Below the pieces are notes generated by a model. That model did not search any database. It saw only the letters and a program-made list of their open reading frames with translations, and was not told the DNA's origin. A DNA stretch of 64,000 nt from Dictyostelium discoideum (lineage: Eukaryota), in the NCBI GenBank assembly GCA_000004695.1, contig CM000154.2, positions 1,920,001 through 1,984,000 on the forward strand, given 5' to 3'. A program made the position numbers and the translations under genes. Each line of letters opens with the position of its first letter. The stretch's first letter is position 1. Of the stretch, positions 6,304-50,010 are shown piece after piece.

Positions 6304-7406
6304 TTAAAGTTTATTTCTAAAATCTGGTATTTCAGTTTTATAAATATTTTTTGATTTTATATAATTTAAAGCATTATCAGGCATTAAATATTTAACAGAA
6401 AATTTATTTCTTAATTTTTCTCTAATCTTTGTTGAAGATACATCATTTGTAATATCAGCAGGTATTAAATAAATTCCATCTTTATTCTTTGTTAATATTT
6501 CATTAATTGATATAATATCATTTAAATTTGAACCAATTCTAGGAATTACTGCAATACCAAAATTATCTTTTGATGATAATAAATTCATCTTTATTTTTAT
6601 AATTATTATTATTTTATTTTATTTTAAATTAATTTTTATTTTTATTTTTTATTTTTAATACATACATCATTATCAGACCAAAGATTTGGTATATTAAAAG
6701 AACCTAATAAATCAGAACCACAAACCAATATTACATTTACTTTGCAAATGATATTTTTATTGATGTTTAAATAATTTTCAACACTTAATTTGATATGATC
6801 TAATACTTGTCTTGTTGGTGTGAATATTGGTTTGTCAGATTCAAATCTATCCATCATTAACCAATCTGAATCTTCAATTGATAATTCAACCATTGTTGTT
6901 CTATGTGATGATTCAATTAATGTCTTTTTATCATAGCCATCACCAACTGGTGATAAATANNNNNNNNNNNNNNNNNNNNNNNNNNNNNNNNNNNNNNNNN
7001 NNNNNNNNNNNNNNNNNNNNNNNNNNNNNNNNNNNNNNNNNNNNNNNNNNNNNNNNNNNTTTTTTTTTTTTTTTTTTTTAATATTATTTGTTTAGATTAT
7101 TAAAAAAAAAAATAAAAAAAATAATAATAGTAATAATAATAATAATAATAAAAAAAAAATAAAACAAATGAATAAATTATTTATTTTATTTTATCTTATA
7201 TTATTTTATTTTATTTTATTTTATTTATAATTTTATTTTATTTTATTTTATTTTATTTTATTTTATTTTATTTTATTTTATTTACCCATCATTCTTAAAT
7301 GCATATATGTAATAGGGTTAAATGAACCAGTTCCAACTAATATTAATGGTTTTCTTGAATCATTTATATTTGGTATAGTTAATTTTGAAACTGAGAAATT
7401 ATTCAT
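6304..7406 (-). CDS. nmnat: nicotinamide/nicotinate mononucleotide adenylyltransferase (NMNAT), multi-exon, interrupted by an assembly gap
   Basis: Exon 1 (7286..7406, minus) encodes MNNFSVSKLTIPNINDSRKPLILVGTGSFNPITYMHLRMMG, containing the GxFNPxT(H) nucleotidyltransferase motif, followed by a GTAA donor. The middle exon (about 6667..6959) encodes YLSPVGDGYDKK...HRTTMVELS...ILVCGSDLLGSFNIPNLWSDND (NMNAT LLCGADxLxSF..PNLW). The last exon (6304..6588) encodes ADITNDVSSTKIRE...SVKYLMPDNALNYIKSKNIY (NMNAT ISSTxIR and SVKYLIPDxVxxYIK motifs). The 100-N gap at 6960-7059 falls inside the coding region. Confidence 0.8.
6960..7059. other. assembly gap (100 N) inside the NMNAT gene
   Basis: Literal N run. 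Confidence 0.99.
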
Positions 7407-11564: not shown

Positions 11565-11769
11565 TCACATAACCTGTTTGAAAAATTCAACTCCTACCAT
11601 AAGAACCTTATAAAAAAAAAACTCCTTTGTGGTTACCTTACATTTAATTTTTAAAAGTTAGGGAAAAAAAAAAATAAAAAAAAAAAAAATGAAAAAAATG
11701 GTAAGAAATATGCAACTAACTCCCGATTATTATTTTTTTTTTTTTTTTTTTTTAATACTTTCAACAGGT

Positions 11770-11804
<35 letters not shown>

Positions 11805-11953
11805 AAAAATAAAAAAATTAATTAATTTATCTTTGATTAAAAAAGATGATCGGATAAAATTCAAAGCTTAAAAAAAAAAAAAACCCTCTAAAAGTAAAAG
11901 GAAATACTTCTTTTATTTTAAACTGATAAAAATCCGAAAAGGACCCGAAAGAG

Positions 11954-12007
<54 letters not shown>

Positions 12008-13040
12008 TTTTTTCCCCTTTTTTATTATAAAAGCTTGTCGCCAGAGAAAAATAAAAAAAAAAAAAATAAAAAAACCCGATAATCTCAGATCTGTTGAAAT
12101 GGTAATAAAAGGTTCATAAAAAAAAAAAAAAAAAAAATATCTAATTTACGTTGCAAATTGGGCAATTAACGACGCGTCACTTGTTTTTTTTTTTTTTTTT
12201 TTTTTTCGTGTGATTAATTAACAACATGATTAAAAAAATAAAATGAAAAAAAAAAATAAAATAAAATAAAATAAAAAAAAAAATAAAAAAAATTCTACAA
12301 CCTTGTAAATTAAAAAAAAAAAAAAGGTGGGCATAATTATCAAACTTGGTCCACTTTTCGTAAATTTTTTAAAATTTTTTAAATTTCGTACTATGCGGAA
12401 AAGTCTCTCTTGATTTTTTTTTTCTTTTTTTTTTATACAAAATTTTTTTTCATTTTTTGATAGTAAAAAGATATTTTCATCGAGGCATAATCGAAAAAGT
12501 GGATGGTAGATCCCAGTTAATCGCGATTAAGTTGATTTTTTTTTTTTTTCTTCACTTTTTTTTCACTTTTTTTTATTTTCTTTTTTTTTTTTTTTTTTTA
12601 ATTTTTATTTTATTTTATTTCACAATATTAGGTCGAGTCAACAATTAGATAAACACATTTTAGTGTATTCATAATCTTCTTTTTTTTTTTTTTTCTTTAT
12701 TTTTTAAAATCAAAAAAATCAAATAAAATAAAATTATTCATTTAAATTGCATTTAATAAAAAAAATAAAAAAAATAAAAAAATTAAAAAAAAAATAAAAT
12801 CTAAAAATAGAAAACTATAAATAAAAATTTTGACACCAAACAGAGAAAAAAATAAAAAAAAAAAAAAATAATAAAAAATTATTTTCAAACCAACTTACAA
12901 CACATTACAATTAAAAATAAATAACCTCATATAGTTTATTTAATCCTACTCTCATATTTTATTTCTACAAATTTAAAATAGTCTCAAAATCAATTTTCTA
13001 TTGGTTATTCAAATAATAAAAACAAAAAAAAAAAAAATAA

Positions 13041-16054: not shown

Positions 16055-17609
16055 AACTTTGTAATGCAATAAATTTGCATCATAAAAAACTTTAATATCA
16101 TGGATTTGGTTGAGAGAATGGTAACCAATGGGAAAATTAAAGAAATATTACCAAAGTTAATATCAACAAAACAAATTCATGAAGAAAAGATTTTATTTTT
16201 AATTAATTTAATTTTAGTATTGTTGGAATCTATTAATTTCATTAAAATTGATAAATAGATAGAGAATTTTAACAATAACACCAATTAATGAAAATAGATT
16301 TAATTTATTGAATGATTATTGGCAAATGTTATTAGAAAATCATCAGTTTTTAAATAATCATTTTATTGAAACAGGAGTATATAATAATTTAATAATCAAT
16401 AAAGATACGTTTGAAAGTGAAGGCAGATTAGAACAAATTCAATTTTATACTCTAGTACATCCAATAATTTGCAAAAACTGTATCAGAAACATTAGCTCAT
16501 AATGCCAAAAATAGATTCAATGATTCAACCATAACTCCAAATCAAATTGTAGACCATACTCGTTTGCTCAATGGTACATGTGAATCTACTTTTTGAATGT
16601 TGAAAAATGGACAATGGATAGAACATGACCAGAGCTCAGTGCTTATATGAACTCATTTAGATCATTCTCTATGCAATGTGTCCAATCGACCACCACTTGG
16701 GATTCAACAACCATTAGAAGAATACCATATTATCGTGATGAACCAGAATATGATACTGAAACTAAATTGGAATTTATTAGATTATTTTTTAATAGTTTGA
16801 CAAATCAATTCTCTAAAAGAACCTTTACAAGAAATGAAAATAAGCAACCATTTGAATCCGAAATGGTAAATCAATTCAATGATAGCAAATTAAAATTAAA
16901 TTATTGTTTAAAATTAGTTAGAAACAATTTCTTGTGCGAAACTGGTAAATTTCAACTTTCAATCAAAGGTTTGTCCAAGTCCCACACCAAGAAAAAAGAG
17001 CAATTTCAGTAAATATAGCAAGAAAATGTATAGGTTATAATGAAGATTCTCGTTTAGATGCTGTAATTTTTCAAACATCTGATTTTCGCCGTAAAGTTAT
17101 ATTTAAAGAAGAAGTTGCCAACTATGAATTTACTCCAAGTTTGGTAAATGAATCAATTAAAATAAAGAATGAATGTGAAGATTTAACACTTCTCCTCAAT
17201 GAAAGAAGATTGGTTCTAAATCAAAATCCAATTTTGTTATCCCAACTAATCGATTTGGCATCAATTATTAAAAATGAAAAACACGAATATAATGCGTTCA
17301 AATAAAATTTCTAATCAACTTAGAATGCAATAATCAAAAATAAAGAATTATTCTGATTCATATTTTGAAAAGGCAAATACTTTCAAATTTAATAAATCAA
17401 TTGTTTCAGAGATTGAAGTCAAATAATTTAATTGAAAGAGAAGGTCTTCCCAATAAATTAGAAAACCTAGATATGGAAAATATTATTGGTTTATATGAAA
17501 TTGAATCTTCAAATGATAATATGGAATGAAAATCCAAATCTATAATTTATTATTGAGGCTTGAACATTATGTGAATCTAATTTTTGTTATAGTGTCATTT
17601 CTGGTTTCA
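16055..17609 (+). repeat. copy A of an unidentified dispersed repeat family (normal-complexity sequence with broken ORFs)
   Basis: Unlike the AT-homopolymer intergenic DNA elsewhere, this segment has codon-like complexity with multiple interrupted frames (ORFs 16308..16502, 16647..17012). 16055-16160 is homologous to 19958-20060; 17380-17540 to 21690-21860; and 17050-17400 to the reverse complement of 21870-22110. Confidence 0.6.
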
Positions 17610-17770
17610 NNNNNNNNNNNNNNNNNNNNNNNNNNNNNNNNNNNNNNNNNNNNNNNNNNNNNNNNNNNNNNNNNNNNNNNNNNNNNNNNNNNNNNNNNNN
17701 NNNNNNNNNAAAATTAGATTCACATAATATAATGTTCAAGCCTCAATAATAAATAATAGATTTGGATTAT
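17525..17770. repeat. imperfect palindrome (inverted repeat arms of about 60 nt) centred on an assembly gap
   Basis: 17525-17585 (aatccaaatctataatttattattgaggcttgaacattatgtgaatctaatttt) is the reverse complement of 17710-17770 (aaaattagattcacataatataatgttcaagcctcaataataaataatagatttggatt). The 100-N gap at 17610-17709 sits exactly at the centre. Confidence 0.75.
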
Positions 17771-18699
17771 TATCAAAAAAAATGGCTGATATAATTAAAA
17801 ATTTATAAATAATAATAATAAATATAATAAAAAAATAAATAAATAAATAAATAAAATTTTAAATAATAAAAAAAAATTAAGAAAAAAAAGGTTAACAAAT
17901 TGAAGCCTTAATATTTATAAATAATAAAAAAAAAAAAAAAAAGTAAGAAAACATTAATTAACATCACATCAAATTTGTTTCGTCAACTTTTTAATTTAAA
18001 TTTAAATGAAGAGATAGAAAATTTAAAATCTGCATATATGCTTATATTGGGAATTAAATCTTTTTAAATGGTTTCAAGTTGGCCCGTTGTAAATGAAATA
18101 ATTGATCTTGAAATTACTGTTGATATTGTAATAGTAATTTCTGTTGTTTTTCTATTTACTGTGAGATTGGTGACATTGTTTCATTATTATTATTATTTTG
18201 TTGACCAGTTATCATTGGCCCATTATCCTCATTATTATAAACTTATTTAATAAACTAATTAAATTAAATAAATTATTACTATTATTAAAGGAAGAAGAAA
18301 ATCTTGTAAATCAAACTCTGGATTTATTTGAAAAAACGGCCCTTGATTTTTTCAAAATATTTTTTAAAAAAAAAAAAAATTAAATGTATAATTATCTAAA
18401 AACAAATTTTAATAATTTAAGATCAAGATTTTGTACCATATCTGTTCTTTTTATTTTTAGATACACTATTTAAATGTTTTAGAATATGTTGAGTTAATAA
18501 AATTACATTTTTTAAAAAAAAATATTTGAACAGATTGGGTAAAAAAAAAAAAAAGAAATTAAAATATTTTTTTAAAAAATTCAGGAATAAATTAATATTT
18601 TATTAATTAGAAATATAAAAAAAAAAAAAAAAATTTAAATGAATAAATAATCTACAAATAAAATTATTTATAATTTTGATTATTCTTTGCAACAATTTT

Positions 18700-19135
18700 T
18701 GATATTTTGAGAGAGCTTTACAGCAATTTCAATAATACTGTACAGTCCATCTTTTTTCGAAATTCTTATCAATTGTAATCATGATAGTTTGCAGTTAGAA
18801 CAATGGCAGTAACTGCTGGTGAAACATCACGAAGAAGGGTATATGCAACACGTTGAACATCAGCAACTGTGATTTCATTAATACGTGTGTATACCTCAAA
18901 TGGTGATAAACGACGACCTAAAGTTAAAATTTGACGACCAATGCCTTCGCAAACTTTACTGGTACCATCGTATTGCATTAATGTGGTAGCTAAAAGTTTT
19001 TGTTTGTTACGTTCTACCTCATTTTTATTGCAACTAGTTGCGATTCTTTGCCACTCCTTCAAACATTTCAGCAACTAAATCATCAACACGTTCTGGTTGA
19101 CAAACACCATAGTTACCAAAAGAGAAAGAACAAAC
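18700..19135 (-). pseudogene. duplicated 3' fragment of the mitochondrial processing peptidase beta gene (mppB pseudogene fragment)
   Basis: 18780-19125 is near-identical at the nucleotide level to 22900-23225 of the intact gene. ORF 18769..19074 encodes LKEWQRIATSCNKNEVERNKQKLLATTLMQYDGTSKVCEGIGRQILTLGRRLSPFEVYTRINEITVADVQRVA..., matching mppB residues about 284-384 with a premature stop. 18700-18780 is more diverged. Homology includes the stop codon and about 20 nt of 3' UTR and ends abruptly at about 19125. Confidence 0.85.
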
Positions 19136-19957: not shown

Positions 19958-20987
19958 TAATGCAACTAATTTTGCTTTTTAATAATGGATTTGGTTAAGA
20001 GAATGGTATCCAATTGAAGAATTATAGGAATGTTACCAAGTTTTTACCAACAAACATTAAAATTGATATTGAGTTTTTAACAACTACACGTGTAGTATAC
20101 TAATAAATGAAAAATTAAAATATTTCAAAAATTAAATCAATTTCTTTTTATTTTATCATTATATTATATAGTTTTGGAATAGACTATATGTTTAAATAAT
20201 AATAGTAAAAAAAAAAATAATGGTTAAAAAATATTTACATTCAAACAATTAATCCATCAAAACTCAAACATTCTTCACGACCACTGAGAAAAATTTTAAC
20301 TTAGGCACTATAAGCCCCAACAGCCCAAACTGAATTGTAAAAACCTTGTAAGGGCTGTTCTTAACCCTTATGAATGATGTATGGGCTGCTTGCAAAGTTT
20401 CAAATTTTGCACGCAGCCCGTACAGTCTTTTAAAGGGTTGTGTAAAGCCCTTACAAGGTTTTTTAGATATTTGCTAACAACAATAATACTTAAAAAAAAA
20501 AAACGGTTGCACAACCCATTCAAATTTTTAAAAAAAATTATTCAAACGAAAATTCAATATTAATAAATATATATGAAATTTCATATTTATATAAAAAAAT
20601 AATCAAAATAAATACAATAATTTATAATTTTTTTTTTTTATATAAAAAAATATAAAATCAAATAAATATAAATATATTTTTATCTATTTTAAATTTTATA
20701 TAAATTTTTTTTTTTTTTTTTTTTTTCTATTTATTTGATTTTATTTGATTTTTTTATTTTTGACCTAAAATAAATGTAAAGTTATTAGTTAAAGTTATTA
20801 GTTTTTTTATTTTTTTTTTTTATTTATTTATTTTTTTTTTTTTAGGTACTTTAATATTAAAAAAAAAACATGTTATTTTTTAAAAAAAATTTACATTTAT
20901 ATATAGGATATAAATTTTCCTATTTTATTTTATTTTATTTCCTAAATATAAATTCCTATTTTATTTTATTTTATTTATTTATTGGTT

Positions 20988-21069
<82 letters not shown>

Positions 21070-22110
21070 TAATTGACTATAGTATAATAATTTTTGAATC
21101 TATATTTAAATAAAATATAATTGAAAAATATAAAATAAAAACAATATGCAAAGTGATTTTTTATTTTAATTTTGGTAAAGAGAAAATTAAAATTAAAAAA
21201 AAGAAAAAATTAATAATAAAAAATACTACATACATTCAGGTTTTTATTTTTTTTGCAAAGTCACAAACAATATTATCGTATTTTCTTACCAAATGTTTAA
21301 ATAAATAAATTTATTAACAACGATTAAATATTGTTTATTTTTTAAATACATTTAAAAAAGAAAAAATTATAAACCTTGTTATTGCCCATTTTAAAAAAAA
21401 CCTTTGGAATCTTTGCAGTACATTTTTTTTTTTAAAAAAAAAAAATACCTTGTATTAGCCCGGTTGGGACGAATAGACCGTTCAGCCATTTAGTCCATTT
21501 TTTTTTTTTTAAAAAAAAATTTTTTAAGGACTGTCAACCGGGTTTATACAAGCCCTTATAAGAGATCATGGCTTGGTCGTGTTGTAAAATAATATATAAA
21601 CAATAAAATAAAATAAAATAAAATAGAAAAAAATATTAAAATCATTTTAAATCATATAATGTATGTGCCATATTTGATCTTTATTAAACATTATTTTTAG
21701 TTTTTCAGCTGAAGTCAAAATAAATAAGTTAATTGATAGAGAAGGTACCATGAAATTAGAGAAAATAGTTATTGAAAATATTATTAGTTTAAATGAAAAA
21801 GAATTTTCAAATGGATTTATGGAAATTTATTATTTATTAAACCTATATTGTGTCGATTTGAGTGTTTTCATCTTTTCCAAGGATGAATCAGCCAATTTCT
21901 TTATTTTAGAAGTTGCTTTCTAAGTTGACTCTGAGATTATTTCTAATCCATTATGGATTTATATATATGGTTTTTTCTCTTTTACAATATGAAATCTTCT
22001 TTCATTCATCCTTAAATTTAATAAATTCATATAACAAGCTTAGAGAAATTTCATAGTGGGCAACTTCTTCAGAAATATAACTCTACGACGAACATCTGGT
22101 GTAGGACTTT
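19958..22110. repeat. copy B of the same dispersed repeat family, rearranged with an internal inversion and GC-richer hairpin islands
   Basis: See copy A for homology blocks. 21690-21860 (plus orientation) and 21870-22110 (inverted) match adjacent parts of copy A. Hairpin islands lie at 20340-20460 and 21465-21560. Confidence 0.55.
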
Positions 22111-22139: not shown

Positions 22140-22193
22140 TATCAACACACCAACATAATAATAATATAATGATAATAATAATAATAATAATTA

Positions 22194-22283
<90 letters not shown>

Positions 22284-22310
22284 TAATAATAATAATAAGA
22301 TTACTCAACT
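22140..22310. repeat. (ATT/AAT)n microsatellite
   Basis: ataataataataat... run. A second (ATT)n run lies at 22617-22702. Confidence 0.9.
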
Positions 22311-22701: not shown

Positions 22702-22799
22702 TAATATTATTAATATTATTATTTATTTTTATAAACCTATAATCTGTTCCAATACTAAATAATTTAAAGATAAAAAAAAAAAAAATTAGTAAAAATTTA

Positions 22800-24200
22800 T
22801 TAGTTAAAATTTTTGGAAAAAAATTGAGAGAGCTTCGCAGCAATTTCAATAATACTTACAGTCCAGCCTTTAACAAAATTGTAGTCAGGGTAGTTTGCAA
22901 TTGGGCCAATGGCAGTAACTGCTGGTGAAACATCACGAAGAAGGGTAGATGCAACACGTTGAACATCAGCAACTGTGATTTCATTAATACGTGTGTATAC
23001 CTCAAATGGTGATAAACGACGACCTAAAGTTAAAATTTGACGACCAATGCCTTCGCAAACTTTACTGGTACCATCGTATTGCATTAATGTGGTAGCTAAA
23101 AGTTTTTGTTTGTTACGTTCTACCTCATTTTTATTGCAACTAGTTGCGATTCTTTGCCATTCCTTCAACATTTCAGCAACTAAATCATCAACACGTTCTG
23201 GTTGACAAACACCATAGTTACCGAAAAGACCTGTATCTTGATAACAAGTGAAAAAGGTAGAATAAGATTCTGCAAGATCTTCAGTGGCAACAATTTCACC
23301 AAGGTTTGATGCAATGTTTTTACCGGCGGCAATACCACGATTCCAGTTACCAATCATAGTTTGAATTAATTCTAAAACAAAGTAATCTGGATCAGTCCAT
23401 GGAAGGGCTCTAACAGCAACGGCAAAATGAATCAATGGTTGTTCATCATCACGGACACGGAGTTCTGAACCAATAAAGTCATTGGTGATTGCGGCTCTCT
23501 TTACATCTTTAGAAACTTGTGACATCTTTACGTTTGCGAATTTCTCTTTAACTTGTTCAACGAGTTGTTCATGGTTAACTGCACCAGCAGCAGAGATAAC
23601 TAAACGATCACCAGTATAATTTTCATTGATAAATTCTTGAATTTGTTCACGAGTAATTGATTTAATATTTTCGACTGGACCTAAAATGGTTCTACCTAAT
23701 GCTGAACCTTGGAAAGCGGCGGCGTGTAATTGATCAAAGACAACTTCATCTTCTTTGGATTGAATATAATCGTTTTCACTGAGGATGGTGTCACGCTCTT
23801 GTTCAATTAATGAGGTTTCAAATTTACTATTTTGTAAGATATCAGAGAGGATATCAACGGCATTTGGTACGTTATCTTTTAAAACTTTCATGTAGTAAGC
23901 ACTGTGTTCACGACTAGTGAATGCATTTAAACTACCACCCATATTTTCAATTTCAGTTTCAATTGATTGTGGTGTTGGACGTTTGGCTGTACCTTTGAAA
24001 ATCATATGTTCTAAAAAGTGTGCTACACCATTATTCTTATCAGTTTCATAAACTGAACCACTATCAACCCAAACACCTACACTTGCAACTTCACCATATG
24101 TTTGTTCTGTTGCAACTCTAATACCATTTGATAATGTTGTAATTTTAGTTTCTGGTGAAATCTTTAAATATGATGGGTCAACTGTTTTTCTTGAAAATGA
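22800..24200 (-). CDS. mppB: mitochondrial processing peptidase beta subunit / core-1-like M16 peptidase (3' exon(s); 5' presequence exon not resolved)
   Basis: The minus-strand ORF, extended upstream to an AG acceptor at about 24200, encodes RSFSRKTVDPSYLKISPETKITTLSNGIRVATEQ...VGVWVDSGSVYETDKNNGVAHFLEHMIFKGTAKR (the M16 HxxEH inverted zinc motif, HFLEH), then ...LGRTILGPVENIKSITREQIQEF...NYPDYNFVKGW. The codon usage is GC-richer than the neighbours, suggesting high expression. The upstream exon carrying the initiator Met and targeting peptide could not be placed. Confidence 0.85.
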   Translation of the reverse strand, partial: SFSRKTVDPSYLKISPETKITTLSNGIRVATEQTYGEVASVGVWVDSGSVYETDKNNGVAHFLEHMIFKGTAKRPTPQSIETEIENMGGSLNAFTSREHSAYYMKVLKDNVPNAVDILSDILQNSKFETSLIEQERDTILSENDYIQSKEDEVVFDQLHAAAFQGSALGRTILGPVENIKSITREQIQEFINENYTGDRLVISAAGAVNHEQLVEQVKEKFANVKMSQVSKDVKRAAITNDFIGSELRVRDDEQPLIHFAVAVRALPWTDPDYFVLELIQTMIGNWNRGIAAGKNIASNLGEIVATEDLAESYSTFFTCYQDTGLFGNYGVCQPERVDDLVAEMLKEWQRIATSCNKNEVERNKQKLLATTLMQYDGTSKVCEGIGRQILTLGRRLSPFEVYTRINEITVADVQRVASTLLRDVSPAVTAIGPIANYPDYNFVKGWTVSIIEIAAKLSQFFSKNFN

Positions 24201-25087
24201 TCTCTAAAAATAATTTAAATTTTTATGTATATATATTTTTTATAATTATTTTTGTTAATCATTTGACATTTTTTTTTTTTTTTTTTTTTTTTTTATATAT
24301 TTATTTAATTAAAAATTTAATTATTTTTTTATTTAATTATTTATTTCATTTCATTTCATTCATTTTATTTATTTATTTTTTAAATATTTTTTTTTTTTTT
24401 TTGAAAGTGTGGTGAAGGTATTATAAAAAAAAAAAATTATGAGGCAAAAAAAAAAAATATATATATATATTTGTTTACACTACACCATAGTTATATAATC
24501 GATTAAAAAGAAGATTTAGATTTTTTTTCTTTTTTTATTTTTTCCTTAAAAATTATTTTTTATTTTTTTTAGTCTTTTTTTATTTGTGTGGTGGGTGAAT
24601 TAAAATAAAAAAATAAAACAATAGTTTTTTTATATTTTTAGTATAAAAACTATATTATTTCATTGAAACCTACAGAAAAGTTTTTAGTTGATTTAACAAA
24701 TAATTTGGTGATATTTGACATTCTATAGAAATTAATAATATATACTATTATGTTTATATACAACTCGAAAAATGATCAAAAATTTAAAAAATTAAAAAAA
24801 AAAATAAAAAAAAAAAAAAAAAAAAAAAACCAAAAAAAAAAAAAAATTAAAAAAATTAAAAAAAAAAAAATTTCGAAAAATGTTGAAAAAATTTTTTAAT
24901 GATACAATGAACTTCTGAATTAATATGCAAAAAAAAAAAAAAAACTAAAACACTAAAAATTAAAAATTTCATTGAAAATTTAATTAATCAAATTTAATTT
25001 AATCATTTTTTTATATTATTTATTTTTTCAATAATTAAAATGAATAATCGTTAAATTGAAAAAAAAATAAAAAACAATTTTCAAAAA

Positions 25088-25141
<54 letters not shown>

Positions 25142-25339
25142 CTTAAGTCTCAGTAACAAACTATTGAAATTTGGTCAAATACCCCAAATTAGTTTTTTTT
25201 TTTTTTTTTTTTTTATCTTTATTCAAAAAAATAAAAATATAAAAAAACAAATTCAAATTTAAATCTGATAAATTTGGGTGAAAATAAAATAATAAATATA
25301 TAAATAAATAAATAAAAAAAATAAGGTAATTAATAATTG

Positions 25340-25672
25340 ATATCGTTTTTTTTTTTTTTTTTTTTTTTAAAAAAAATTCCCCAAAAAAAAAAAAAAAAAA
25401 AAAACCAAAAAAAATTAAAAATTAAAAAAAGGGGGTTAAAAAAAAAAAAAAAAAAAATTTTTTTTAAATGGGGGGGGGGGAAATTTTTGGGGTTTTTTTT
25501 TAAAGGGAAAATAAACAAAAATTTTTTGGGAAATTCCCAAAAATTAAGGGGAAAAAAAAAAAAAAATTTCCCAAATTTTTTTTTTTTGGGGGGAAAAAAA
25601 AAAAAAAGGAACCCCCCCCCCCTTGGAAATTTTAAAAATTACCCAAAAAGGGAAAAAAAAGGGGGGGGGGGG

Positions 25673-25724
<52 letters not shown>

Positions 25725-25760
25725 CTTTAAAAATTCATTTTTTTTTTTTTTTTTTTTTTT
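25340..25760. other. probable low-quality sequence (G/C homopolymers inside A/T runs)
   Basis: Strings such as aatggggggggggaaatttttggggttttttttt and aaaaggaacccccccccccttgg. The ORFs called here (25337..25804 and others) are poly-K/F artefacts. Confidence 0.5.
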
Positions 25761-25872
25761 ATTTATTATTATTTTTATTTTTTGATATTAGCCAAATCAT
25801 ATAAAATTGTTTGTATTAAATATTTTAATCAAAAACCTTTAATATTACTTTTATATAATAATAATTATAATA

Positions 25873-25923
<51 letters not shown>

Positions 25924-25925
25924 TT

Positions 25926-25958
<33 letters not shown>

Positions 25959-26095
25959 TTTTAATTAAAATATTTTGAACATATACTTATTTTTTTTTTT
26001 TAAAAAAAAAAAAAAAAATTTTTTTTTAAAATTATTTTAGATATTTTTTAATTTTATTTGTAAATAATTAATTTGTATTTTTAAAAAAAAAAAAG

Positions 26096-47178: not shown

Positions 47179-48306
47179 ATGATTGATTCAGAGATAGAGT
47201 TAAATAAAGTAATAGTAGTACCATTAATATCAAAAGATTCATTAGATATTAATGATGCAAAAAATTACTATGGAACCGAGTTACACCCAAATCAACCAAT
47301 TCCAACAATAGTTTCAACTCAATCTGAAGTGAATTCTTTAGTTAATCAAAAATCTGGTAATAATCAACAATTGGCCAATGAAGAAAGATTAGTTATATTA
47401 TTAAAACAACAAGAGGTAGAAAAAGATAAAACATTTGATACAAATAAATATTTTAACGAATTATCAACAGATTTATTTGGAAAGAATTTAATTCATACTG
47501 AAGTAATTAGTTCAACACAAGATATAATGTTAAAATATTTAACATATACTCGTCAAGGATTAGTAATGATTGCAGATCAACAAACCGATGGTAGAGGACG
47601 TGATGGAAATAAATTCTTGTCTCCATTGGGATGTTTGTTAATGTCATTCAAATGTAAACAAACTGATTGTAACAAATTACCATTCCTTCAATATTTGACT
47701 GGTATGGCAATGGTCGAAGCAATTCACTCTTTCCCAATTGCATCTGATTTAAATCTTAGTTTGAAATGGCCAAATGAAATCTTTACTAAGGAAGCAGGTA
47801 TTAAGCTTGGTGGAGTCCTCTGTGAACCAAAATATCTTAACAATGAATTTGATGTTGTCATTGGTGTTGGTGTTTATCTTTCAAATTCAAATAATCCATC
47901 AACAACTGTAAATCAATTAATTCACCAGAAACAACAACATGGATCTTCTTTATCATCAACAACAACAAGTACTGATATTCCAATTTATATTAATAGAGAA
48001 GAATTGGTTTCAAAATTCTTTAACAAATTCGAACCAATGTTTATGGAGTTTACAAGAGATGGCTTTAATGCAGATCTTGAAAATAGATACACTGACTTAT
48101 GGATGCATACAAATCAAATTGTAAAAGTAAAAGAAAGAGATTACCATCATGTTAAAATCATTGGTATTTCTGATAGAGGTTTCCTTAAAGTTATTGAATG
48201 TGATGCTGGTGGTAATTCATCTCCAAACTCTCAAATCGTTGAACTAAACCCAGAAAGTACTTCATTTGATATTCAAAATTTAATTTTAATGCAAAAATCA
48301 CAATAA
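47179..48306 (+). CDS. biotin--protein ligase (BirA/holocarboxylase-synthetase catalytic domain) paralog 1
   Basis: VMIADQQTDGRGRDGNKFLSPLGCLLMSF matches the BPL GRGRxGxxWxSPxG biotin-binding loop. LKWPNEIFTKEAGIKLGGVLCE matches BirA KWPNDLYL...KLAGILVE. Confidence 0.8.
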   Translation: MIDSEIELNKVIVVPLISKDSLDINDAKNYYGTELHPNQPIPTIVSTQSEVNSLVNQKSGNNQQLANEERLVILLKQQEVEKDKTFDTNKYFNELSTDLFGKNLIHTEVISSTQDIMLKYLTYTRQGLVMIADQQTDGRGRDGNKFLSPLGCLLMSFKCKQTDCNKLPFLQYLTGMAMVEAIHSFPIASDLNLSLKWPNEIFTKEAGIKLGGVLCEPKYLNNEFDVVIGVGVYLSNSNNPSTTVNQLIHQKQQHGSSLSSTTTSTDIPIYINREELVSKFFNKFEPMFMEFTRDGFNADLENRYTDLWMHTNQIVKVKERDYHHVKIIGISDRGFLKVIECDAGGNSSPNSQIVELNPESTSFDIQNLILMQKSQ

Positions 48307-48882: not shown

Positions 48883-50010
48883 ATGATTGATTCAGATATA
48901 GAATTAAATAAAATAATAGTAGTACCATTAATATCAAAAGATTCATTAGATATTAATGATGCAAAAAATTACTATGGAACCGAGTTATACCCAAATCAAC
49001 CAATTCCAACCATAGTTTCAGCTCAATCTGAAGTAGATTCTTTAATTAATCAAACTTCTGGTAATAATGATGAAGAAAGATTAGTTTTATTATTAAAACA
49101 ACAACAACAAGAGGTAGAAAAAGATAAAACATTTGATACAAATAAATATTTTAACGAATTATCAACAATTTTATTTGGAAAGAATTTAATTCATTCTGAA
49201 GTAATTAGTTCAACACAAGATATAATGTTAAAATATTTAACATATACTCGTCAAGGATTAGTAATGATTGCAGACCAACAAACCAAAGGTAGAGGACGTG
49301 GTGTAAATAAATTCTTGTCTCCATTGGGATGTTTGTTAATGTCATTCAAATGTAAACAAACTGATGGTAATAAATTACCATTCCTTCAATATTTGGCTGG
49401 TATGGCAATGGTCGAAGCAATTCACTCTTTCCCAAGTGCATCTGATTTAAATCTTCGTTTGAAGTGGCCAAACGATATCTATAGTAATGAACCAGGTATG
49501 AAAGTTGGTGGTGTCCTCTGTGAATCAAATTATCTTAACAATGAATTTGATGTTGTCATTGGTGTTGGTGTTAATCTTTCAAATTCAAATAATCCATCAA
49601 CAACTATAAATCAATTAATTCAAAAGAAAAAATATGGATTTTCATCATCATCATTGGCAACAAGTACTGATATTCCAATTTATATTAGTAGAGAAGAATT
49701 GGTTTCAAAATTCTTTAACAAATTCGAACCAATGTTTATGGAATTTACAAGAGATGGCTTTAATGCAGATCTTGAAAATAGATACACTGACTTATGGATG
49801 CATACAAATCAAATTGTAAAATTTAAAGAAAGAGATAACCATCATGTTAAAATCATTGGTATTTCTGATAGTGGTTTCCTTAAAGCTATTGAATGTGATG
49901 CTGATGGTAATACATCTTCTGACTCTGAAACCGTTGAGCTTCACCCAGATGGTACTTCATTTGATATTCAAAACTTAATTTTAATGCAAAAATCACAACA
50001 ACCAAAATAG
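48883..50010 (+). CDS. biotin--protein ligase paralog 2 (tandem duplicate)
   Basis: About 85% amino-acid identity to paralog 1, including GRGRGVNKFLSPLG and KWPNDIYS...KVGGVLCE. About 20 nt of conserved 5' flank (aaacatatacaATGATTGATTCAGA) is shared. Confidence 0.8.
   Translation: MIDSDIELNKIIVVPLISKDSLDINDAKNYYGTELYPNQPIPTIVSAQSEVDSLINQTSGNNDEERLVLLLKQQQQEVEKDKTFDTNKYFNELSTILFGKNLIHSEVISSTQDIMLKYLTYTRQGLVMIADQQTKGRGRGVNKFLSPLGCLLMSFKCKQTDGNKLPFLQYLAGMAMVEAIHSFPSASDLNLRLKWPNDIYSNEPGMKVGGVLCESNYLNNEFDVVIGVGVNLSNSNNPSTTINQLIQKKKYGFSSSSLATSTDIPIYISREELVSKFFNKFEPMFMEFTRDGFNADLENRYTDLWMHTNQIVKFKERDNHHVKIIGISDSGFLKAIECDADGNTSSDSETVELHPDGTSFDIQNLILMQKSQQPK

Follow-up and report, generated by a model that had tools for sequence, protein, structure and literature searches.

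What are the two GC-richer islands that lie downstream of the mppB gene in Dictyostelium discoideum, and do they belong together? An earlier note on this stretch of 64 kb (hereafter the window, at full length; about 20% GC) pointed to a perfect 17-bp inverted repeat in the first island and to a second, related island, and offered a small structured RNA, a transposon terminus or a miniature inverted-repeat element as explanations. The observation is real and was understated; its interpretation is partly supported. We believe, with a probability of roughly 0.55, that the islands lie near the left and the right end of a single non-autonomous DNA-transposon-like insertion, as its subterminal regions. 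The transposon terminus is the closest of the options offered, on the understanding that it is the pair of islands that lies near the termini of a 1,306-bp block, the 17-mer itself being internal.

The two hairpins

The first island contains hp1, an imperfect palindrome whose arms (20339-20400 and 20402-20463) surround one central base. Between the arms there are 49 Watson-Crick pairs, 5 G.U pairs and 8 mismatches. The 17-mer AAAACCTTGTAAGGGCT at 20340-20356 does have an exact reverse complement; it is found at 20446-20462, 2 nt away from the position previously given (20444-20460), and chance would supply 0.16 such matches per window. The description of the island as unusually GC-rich agrees with our count (40% GC in hp1 versus 15% in the 1-kb flanks).

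As RNA of the + strand, hp1 with its flanks has a minimum free energy of -74.9 kcal/mol (z = -12.2; 0 of 200 shuffles as good), and the 125 nt alone give -74.2 kcal/mol, that is, -0.59 kcal/mol/nt. The value for the - strand is -62.6 kcal/mol. This fold is the most stable among 6,318 windows of 130 nt over the 64 kb (mean -14.0, standard deviation 7.2); the other strong folds in the window were set aside as artefacts of homopolymer runs. A T6 run stands just after the stem.

The strands differ in pairing: 54 pairs, including 4 G.U, are formed on the + strand and 44 pairs, with 0 G.U, on the - strand. All 5 transition mismatches between the arms read as G.U on the + strand and 0 as A.C. If the palindrome decayed neutrally, either strand would be equally probable for each mismatch, so that the 5:0 asymmetry has p ~ 0.03 (one-sided; 0.06 two-sided). 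It is thus a hint of an RNA role, and a suggestive one only; hp2, the hairpin of the second island, has no G.U strand bias of this kind.

The hp2 fold is weaker (-38.1 kcal/mol, z = -5). The inverted pair cccggttg/caaccggg, which had been reported for this island, is present at 21459/21535. The proposed kinship of the islands holds for their end motifs and fails for the whole-length alignment of hp1 and hp2, which is not significant. The 3' ends (GGGTT..AAGCCCTTAYAAG) align with a score matched by 0 of 300 shuffles and the 5' ends (AAAWACCTTGTA) with a score matched by 3 of 300; flanks and interiors of the two hairpins give no significant alignment. AAGCCCTTA has only 2 copies in the 64 kb, one per island, each with an ACCTTGTA 102-103 nt upstream of it in the same orientation. 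With up to 2 mismatches allowed, the 64 kb contain the 16-nt subterminal motif TAHAAGCCCYWAYAAG four times, always inside the islands and in both orientations (20309+, 20345-, 20442+ and 21547+). In addition, an inverted module of about 23-24 nt can be followed inward from each end, as CTTGTAAGGGCTGTTCTTAACCC in hp1 and CTTATAAGGGCTTGTATAAACCC in hp2, with a score reached by 13 of 500 shuffles. The features are collected in the table.

Table. Positions of the hairpins, of the block that encloses them and of the interrupted flank copy (numbering of the window)
Feature	Position	Strand	Basis
mppB 3'-flank copy, part 1 (inverted, paralogous; insertion target)	20139..20275	+	BLAST, flank alignments
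Non-coding transposon-like block enclosing both islands	20276..21581	.	flank colinearity, BLAST left boundary, GC, no ORF
Left terminal inverted repeat CACGACCA	20276..20283	+	begins at the first base past flank homology
Extra copy of the 16-nt motif, reads TATAAGCCCCAACAGC	20309..20324	+	
hp1, imperfect palindrome/hairpin, 125 nt, 62-nt arms and 1-nt centre	20339..20463	+	repeat search, folding
Perfect 18-bp basal stem of hp1, 5' half AAAAACCTTGTAAGGGCT	20339..20356	+	
Perfect 18-bp basal stem of hp1, 3' half AGCCCTTACAAGGTTTTT, one further T after	20446..20463	+	
AT-rich block interior, 9.5% GC	20531..21360	.	
Partial tandem duplicate of the hp2 5' arm, ~75-bp period	21361..21444	+	repeat families D10, D11
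hp2, weaker right-end hairpin, T13/A9 apical region, end motifs common with hp1	21446..21563	+	
Right terminal inverted repeat TGGTCGTG, reverse complement of left	21574..21581	-	last base before flank homology resumes (21582)
mppB 3'-flank copy, part 2, resumes directly after the block	21582..21700	+	flank alignment

An interruption in a copied mppB flank

The open reading frame at 22800-24005 (- strand) is mppB, the mitochondrial processing peptidase beta, with 100% identity to the D. discoideum AX4 protein; the hairpin locus lies downstream of it, 2.3 kb from its 3' end. A 375-aa open reading frame, considered as a multi-copy actin, turned out to be a single-copy lipoate-ligase-like gene. 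The tRNA scan of the whole window returned zero tRNAs, and hence there is no context for a tRNA-targeted retroelement (TRE).

For comparison we used an independent AX4-type assembly (L002) and four other loci, two of D. cf. discoideum and two from divergent assemblies labelled D. discoideum; the four have ~88% identity to AX4 across mppB. The interval from mppB to the next conserved gene has a different structure in every Dictyostelium lineage compared. In L001 the last exon of mppB is present as a 272-bp inverted repeat (94%), in L003 part of the mppB 3' end is repeated in direct tandem, and the stretch specific to AX4 is pieced together from fragments of mppB and of the gene at 16-17.5 kb, some direct and some inverted. 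Both hairpins are found in the two AX4-type assemblies, and are in this sense lineage-specific; both are missing from the four other loci. No hairpin like hp1 was found downstream of mppB in the other lineages, the best fold there having -37.8 kcal/mol. In L002, hp1 and hp2 are 100% identical to those of the window and the region differs in poly-T length only; the hairpins are therefore not assembly artefacts.

The islands lie within an interruption of one of the flank copies. The copy breaks off at ...ACATTCTT, and BLAST independently puts the left boundary at 20275. In the uninterrupted flanks (AX4's own, L001 and L004) the ACATTCTT point is followed within ~10 nt by TTGTTATAAAATAATATAT...AATAAAATAAAAT...ATATTTGATC, and the interrupted copy does not reach that continuation before 21582. 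Once 20276-21581 is taken out, the copy becomes colinear with these three flanks, which serve as proxies for a true allelic empty site. The right-hand part of the flank has local scores of 94, 93 and 72 versus the AX4, L004 and L001 flanks, respectively; the control maxima were 49-55 for shuffles and 63-73 for other AT-rich chunks.

The block so delimited is discrete and non-coding and carries inverted repeats of 8 bp at its junctions; neither the paralogous nor the orthologous flanks contain it. These terminal repeats are perfect, GC-rich and placed exactly at both junctions; CACGACCA occurs only 3 times in the 64 kb, both strands included. The left end has 36% GC and the right end 30%; such a difference from the interior, at 9.5%, is what AT-biased decay would produce if it spared the cis-acting ends alone. 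A poly-T tract of ~110 nt (20959-21068) in the interior is 50 nt shorter in L002, where the block has 1,255 bp instead of 1,306 bp and is identical save for the poly-T length. There is no open reading frame of at least 60 aa with coding character in the block: those present are short, and use non-Dictyostelium-like codons or are of low complexity. In the hairpin the frames are short and have no start codons; look-ups of the exact products of two spurious ones through hp1, as a proxy for other assemblies or transcripts, returned no record. The insertion site has lost 8-10 nt of the target, and no target-site duplication was found, only TT adjoining both ends.

The palindrome of hp1 starts 63 nt inside the block. 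The 17-bp repeat, in the earlier note a candidate terminal repeat of a MITE-like element, does not bound a MITE of ~120 nt and forms the foot of this internal palindrome; hp1 as a stand-alone MITE of ~125 nt was rejected, since neither the window nor the six loci contain a further copy. The TA-like flanks of hp1 are uninformative in AT-rich DNA. In ~130 kb of other Dictyostelium DNA neither the block nor hp1 nor the 16-nt motif was found again, and the window contains no source sequence for the block. A search for both hp1 arms at flexible spacing gave 0 matches in metagenome, prokaryotic-genome and viral collections, none of which includes a Dictyostelium genome. BLAST of the island against E. 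coli genomes, plasmids and phages gave no match, which leaves a foreign or contaminant origin without support.

Known elements give partial likenesses. Three families of DNA transposons, Tdd, DDT and Thug, are recognised in D. discoideum and poorly characterised; Thug is a small one, with 0.1% of the genome (PMC5633606). By description, the Thug elements (thug-S and thug-T) resemble the block as small DNA elements of the same organism, and thug-S has internal hairpins where the block has a pre-miRNA-like one; unlike the block, which has no open reading frame, thug-S has an annotated gene model and an intron.

The block is similar to the Stowaway- and Tourist-like MITEs in being non-coding and hairpin-forming, with terminal inverted repeats and an AT-rich interior. 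MITEs are usually shorter than 800 bp, have a high copy number and clear target-site duplications, and fold as whole elements via their termini. The block, at 1,306 bp, exceeds a strict length limit of ~800 bp; it differs also in the missing target-site duplication and in its hairpin, which is an internal subterminal palindrome and not a pairing of the ends. With the foldback (FB-type) transposons it has in common end motifs in both orientations, long imperfect palindromes and local rearrangements; however, in the FB elements long inverted repeats reach all the way to the termini, where the block has a repeat of 8 bp and, between its two ends, only ~24 nt of inverted similarity.

hp1 and the known RNA classes

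Could hp1 be a known structured RNA, a box C/D snoRNA or a Dictyostelium Class I RNA? We find this hardly credible. The covariance scan that the earlier note had proposed gives no basis for such a reclassification: no Rfam family reaches its gathering score anywhere in the window, and at E <= 10 the region 20100-21700 matches only generic miRNA-hairpin models (15-23 bits versus thresholds of 43-90). The UGAUG-like box mentioned there does exist as the string ATGATGT (AUGAUGU in RNA) at 20375-20381 and is the point in favour of a snoRNA. A box C/D snoRNA should have RUGAUGA (box C) close to its 5' end and CUGA (box D) close to its 3' end, with a short stem that closes the termini. In hp1 the AUGAUGU is imperfect and lies mid-stem, the 3' part near its end contains no CUGA, and no snoRNA model matches at E <= 10, so the snoRNA hint was rejected.

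Class I RNAs have 42-65 nt, a short terminal stem, an unpaired 11-nt motif and a DUSE ~60 nt upstream (PMC7919456). The hp1 3' arm does contain CCCUUACAAGG, like the Class I 11-nt motif; however, hp1 has 125 nt and is almost fully paired. The DUSE consensus as used here, CCCAYAA, reportedly goes back to Hinas and Soderbom (2007). It occurs three times in the 64 kb, the nearest being more than 16 kb from hp1; hp1 thus does not have the DUSE ~60 nt upstream that marks Class I and other DUSE-driven RNAs, and the Class I reading was rejected.

A miRNA precursor is a different matter. The folding energy asked of D. discoideum miRNA precursors is below -0.2 kcal/mol/nt (PMC6161686, Table S1), and hp1, with -0.59 kcal/mol/nt over 125 nt, lies well on that side and is comparable in size to known precursors. 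Those published (among them ddi-mir-1176, -1177, -1183, -1186 and -7097) are intergenic single hairpins of 101-179 nt, mostly species-specific, with stabilities from -0.43 to -0.73 kcal/mol/nt. In D. discoideum the hairpins of the thug-S DNA transposon give rise to miRNAs via DrnB/RbdB (PMC4894637, PMC6161686), and in plants MITEs are known to give rise to new miRNA genes (PMC3086885, PMC8862332).

In a rival reading, hp1 is first of all a gene for a hairpin RNA, young and lineage-specific (a proto-miRNA or a hairpin-siRNA gene). Its transcript would come from the + strand and be cut by DrnB/RbdB, the block would be just the intergenic DNA in which it arose, and hp2 would be a decayed tandem sibling. 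The size and stability just given speak for it, as do the intergenic position of a GC-rich hairpin amid AT-rich DNA, the excess of pairs and of G.U on the + strand, and the T6 run. Poor conservation is no objection, since the miRNAs of dictyostelids have almost all arisen recently and are confined to single species; with very fast turnover, only one miRNA is common to D. discoideum and D. firmibasis (PMC11014262). However, the small-RNA surveys of 2016, 2018 and 2024 (PMC4894637, PMC6161686, PMC11014262) list hp1 neither as a miRNA nor as a candidate, which speaks against processing that is abundant and canonical, and none of 26 published mature miRNA sequences maps to it. Statistically the G.U asymmetry is weak, and the pri-miRNA start motif (a T-run and then G) is generic, with candidates on both strands, and thus uninformative. 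This reading leaves unexplained the 8-bp repeats at the junctions and the motif copies outside the hairpin; we consider it unlikely.

For chromosome 5 the catalogues consulted list only mir-1176, mir-1177 and miRNA_can_D2, all of them far from hp1, which in assembly GCA_054883475.1 lies at about 1,983,937-1,984,061 of CM142511.1. A match of the hp1 apical stem to the thug-S-derived miRNA_can_D3 was rejected as chance, with better-scoring matches elsewhere in the window; sequences of miRNA_can_D3 do not map to the window beyond chance.

Origin of the block and its meaning

The other explanation to be weighed needs no mobile element. The locus is a hot spot of duplication and rearrangement, which makes a non-transposon origin possible: the block would be 1.3 kb of filler or template-switch DNA left by repair or replication at a break, hp1 a functionless fold-back duplication, and the 8-bp match a coincidence. 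The different rearrangements of the mppB 3' end in L001, L003 and AX4, the patchwork of neighbouring-gene fragments in AX4 and the partial tandem duplicate adjoining hp2 are all consistent with it. So are the lack of other copies in the ~130 kb and the junction itself, as a few lost target bases and no target-site duplication are typical for end-joining. The coincidence, however, is a demanding one: that two independently placed junctions should match exactly, in inverted orientation, over 8 GC-rich bp has a probability of ~1e-4 or less (an estimate based on composition, with a few bases of slack). The GC-richer ends, which carry repeated motifs and enclose an interior of 9.5% GC, resemble the cis-acting ends of a transposon, and the window offers no sequence from which the block could have been copied. 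We regard this origin as improbable.

The transposon-like insertion has points against it as well: the terminal repeat is of 8 bp only, no target-site duplication was found, and the ~130 kb contain no other copy.

The block is built like a non-autonomous class II transposon: it is discrete and non-coding, inverted repeats mark its junctions, its subterminal motifs recur in both orientations, and its interior has drifted to the AT extreme of the genome. Preferring the insertion, we presume the following course of events. In the AX4 lineage of D. discoideum, a non-autonomous class II (cut-and-paste) element would have entered a copy of the mppB 3' flank that had been duplicated and inverted. Its transposase, provided in trans, would recognise the subterminal motifs and cleave at the terminal repeats. 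The palindrome of hp1 could have arisen by inverted duplication of a subterminal unit of ~60 nt bearing the motif, with the foldback-type ends as a model. If transcribed on the + strand, hp1 would yield a hairpin of 54 bp with the size and stability of a pre-miRNA, and the Dicer-like DrnB/RbdB machinery of Dictyostelium may process it, by analogy with the thug-S hairpins. That hp1 does produce small RNA is possible, with the odds clearly against it.

It is tempting to go further and to see in the block the first known representative of a D. discoideum family of non-autonomous DNA transposons that nobody has described and, at the same time, in hp1 a nascent miRNA or hairpin-siRNA gene already under RNA-level constraint on the + strand. 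Both together are quite improbable.

The structural differences at the mppB 3' end among all the lineages examined are relevant to anyone engineering or comparing this locus. If the block is single-copy and silent, it would be a mere local oddity in a rearrangement-prone intergenic region. As a transposon-like element, it would add to the very thin knowledge of the Dictyostelium DNA transposons and be a second, independent one, besides thug-S, to carry a pre-miRNA-grade hairpin. The element, found in the AX4 lineage and missing from its nearest sequenced relatives, would then be a datable test case for the emergence of new hairpin RNA genes in Amoebozoa.

Rearrangements at the 3' end of mppB

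The 3' end of the mitochondrial processing peptidase beta gene (mppB) carries a different rearrangement in each lineage examined. A partial direct duplicate of the gene lies on the reverse strand in AX4, contains an open reading frame and looks like an mppB pseudogene fragment (Table). The L001 locus (D. cf. discoideum) has an inverted copy of the last mppB exon (272 bp, 94% identity) beginning 466 nt after that exon; read-through of this pair could produce a long dsRNA hairpin against mppB. In contrast to the inverted copy of L001, the copy in the L003 strain is a direct tandem and partial one. The AX4-specific stretch, i.e., the rearranged DNA between mppB and the next conserved gene, also contains dispersed pieces of the neighbouring gene located at ~16.1-17.5 kb, in both direct and inverted orientation.

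Table. Features of the AX4 window and of the L001 and L003 mppB loci.
Feature	Coordinates	Strand	Remark
Partial direct mppB duplicate	18628-19123	-	88% to mppB 22757-23229 (C-terminal exon with stop region)
ORF inside the duplicate	18769-19074	-	within 18628-19123
L001 last-exon inverted pair	11581-11852 / 12319-12590		
L003 direct tandem partial pair	11744-11985 / 12377-12617		
Fragments in the AX4-specific stretch	21722-21824, 21992-22102, 19978-20054		vs gene 17421-17526, 17075-17184, 16091-16170
(ATA)48 microsatellite	22155-22298		mppB 3' flank
100-N assembly gaps (three)	2406-2505, 6960-7059, 17610-17709		
Tandem 375-aa ORFs	47179-48306, 48883-50010	+	BPL_LplA_LipB (lipoate/biotin ligase) domain

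Short repeats, a microRNA match and low-complexity DNA

In the 1,306-bp transposon-like block, 40 nt downstream of its 125-nt hairpin hp1, GCACAACCCATTC (20497-20525) is complementary to GGGTTGTG of the hp1 3' arm; there are just two copies of CACAACCC in the window. Since 20497-20525 looks like an additional partial arm-like unit, the sequence suggests that the left end of the block is built of alternating copies of a unit of ~60 nt. A poly-T tract of ~110 nt in the block (20959-21068) is 50 nt shorter in an independent AX4-type assembly.

The 15-nt sequence ATGAAATTAGAGAAA at 21750-21764 (+) matches ddi-mir-1186-3p (miRNA_can_D1-3p) exactly and is, equivalently, complementary to the ddi-mir-1186 5p strand. 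It is located where a short ORF starts, inside a duplicated gene fragment, and the match may be due to chance or may represent a target-like site.

Alternating homopolymer runs (G14, C11-16, and long A and T runs) at 25480-25720 and 2200-2400 give pseudo-hairpin folds (z = -1.2). One of the two stretches adjoins an assembly gap; thus, both resemble DNA of low quality or DNA that is difficult to sequence.

Divergence among assemblies labelled Dictyostelium discoideum

Two assemblies with this label (L004 and L005) share ~88% identity with AX4 over mppB and its upstream region (window 22865-26000) and 96.6-97.1% at the protein level. The former value, obtained for the mppB locus, is comparable to the 86.5% identity reported genome-wide between D. 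discoideum and D. firmibasis; because of this similar divergence, the two assemblies may represent cryptic species.
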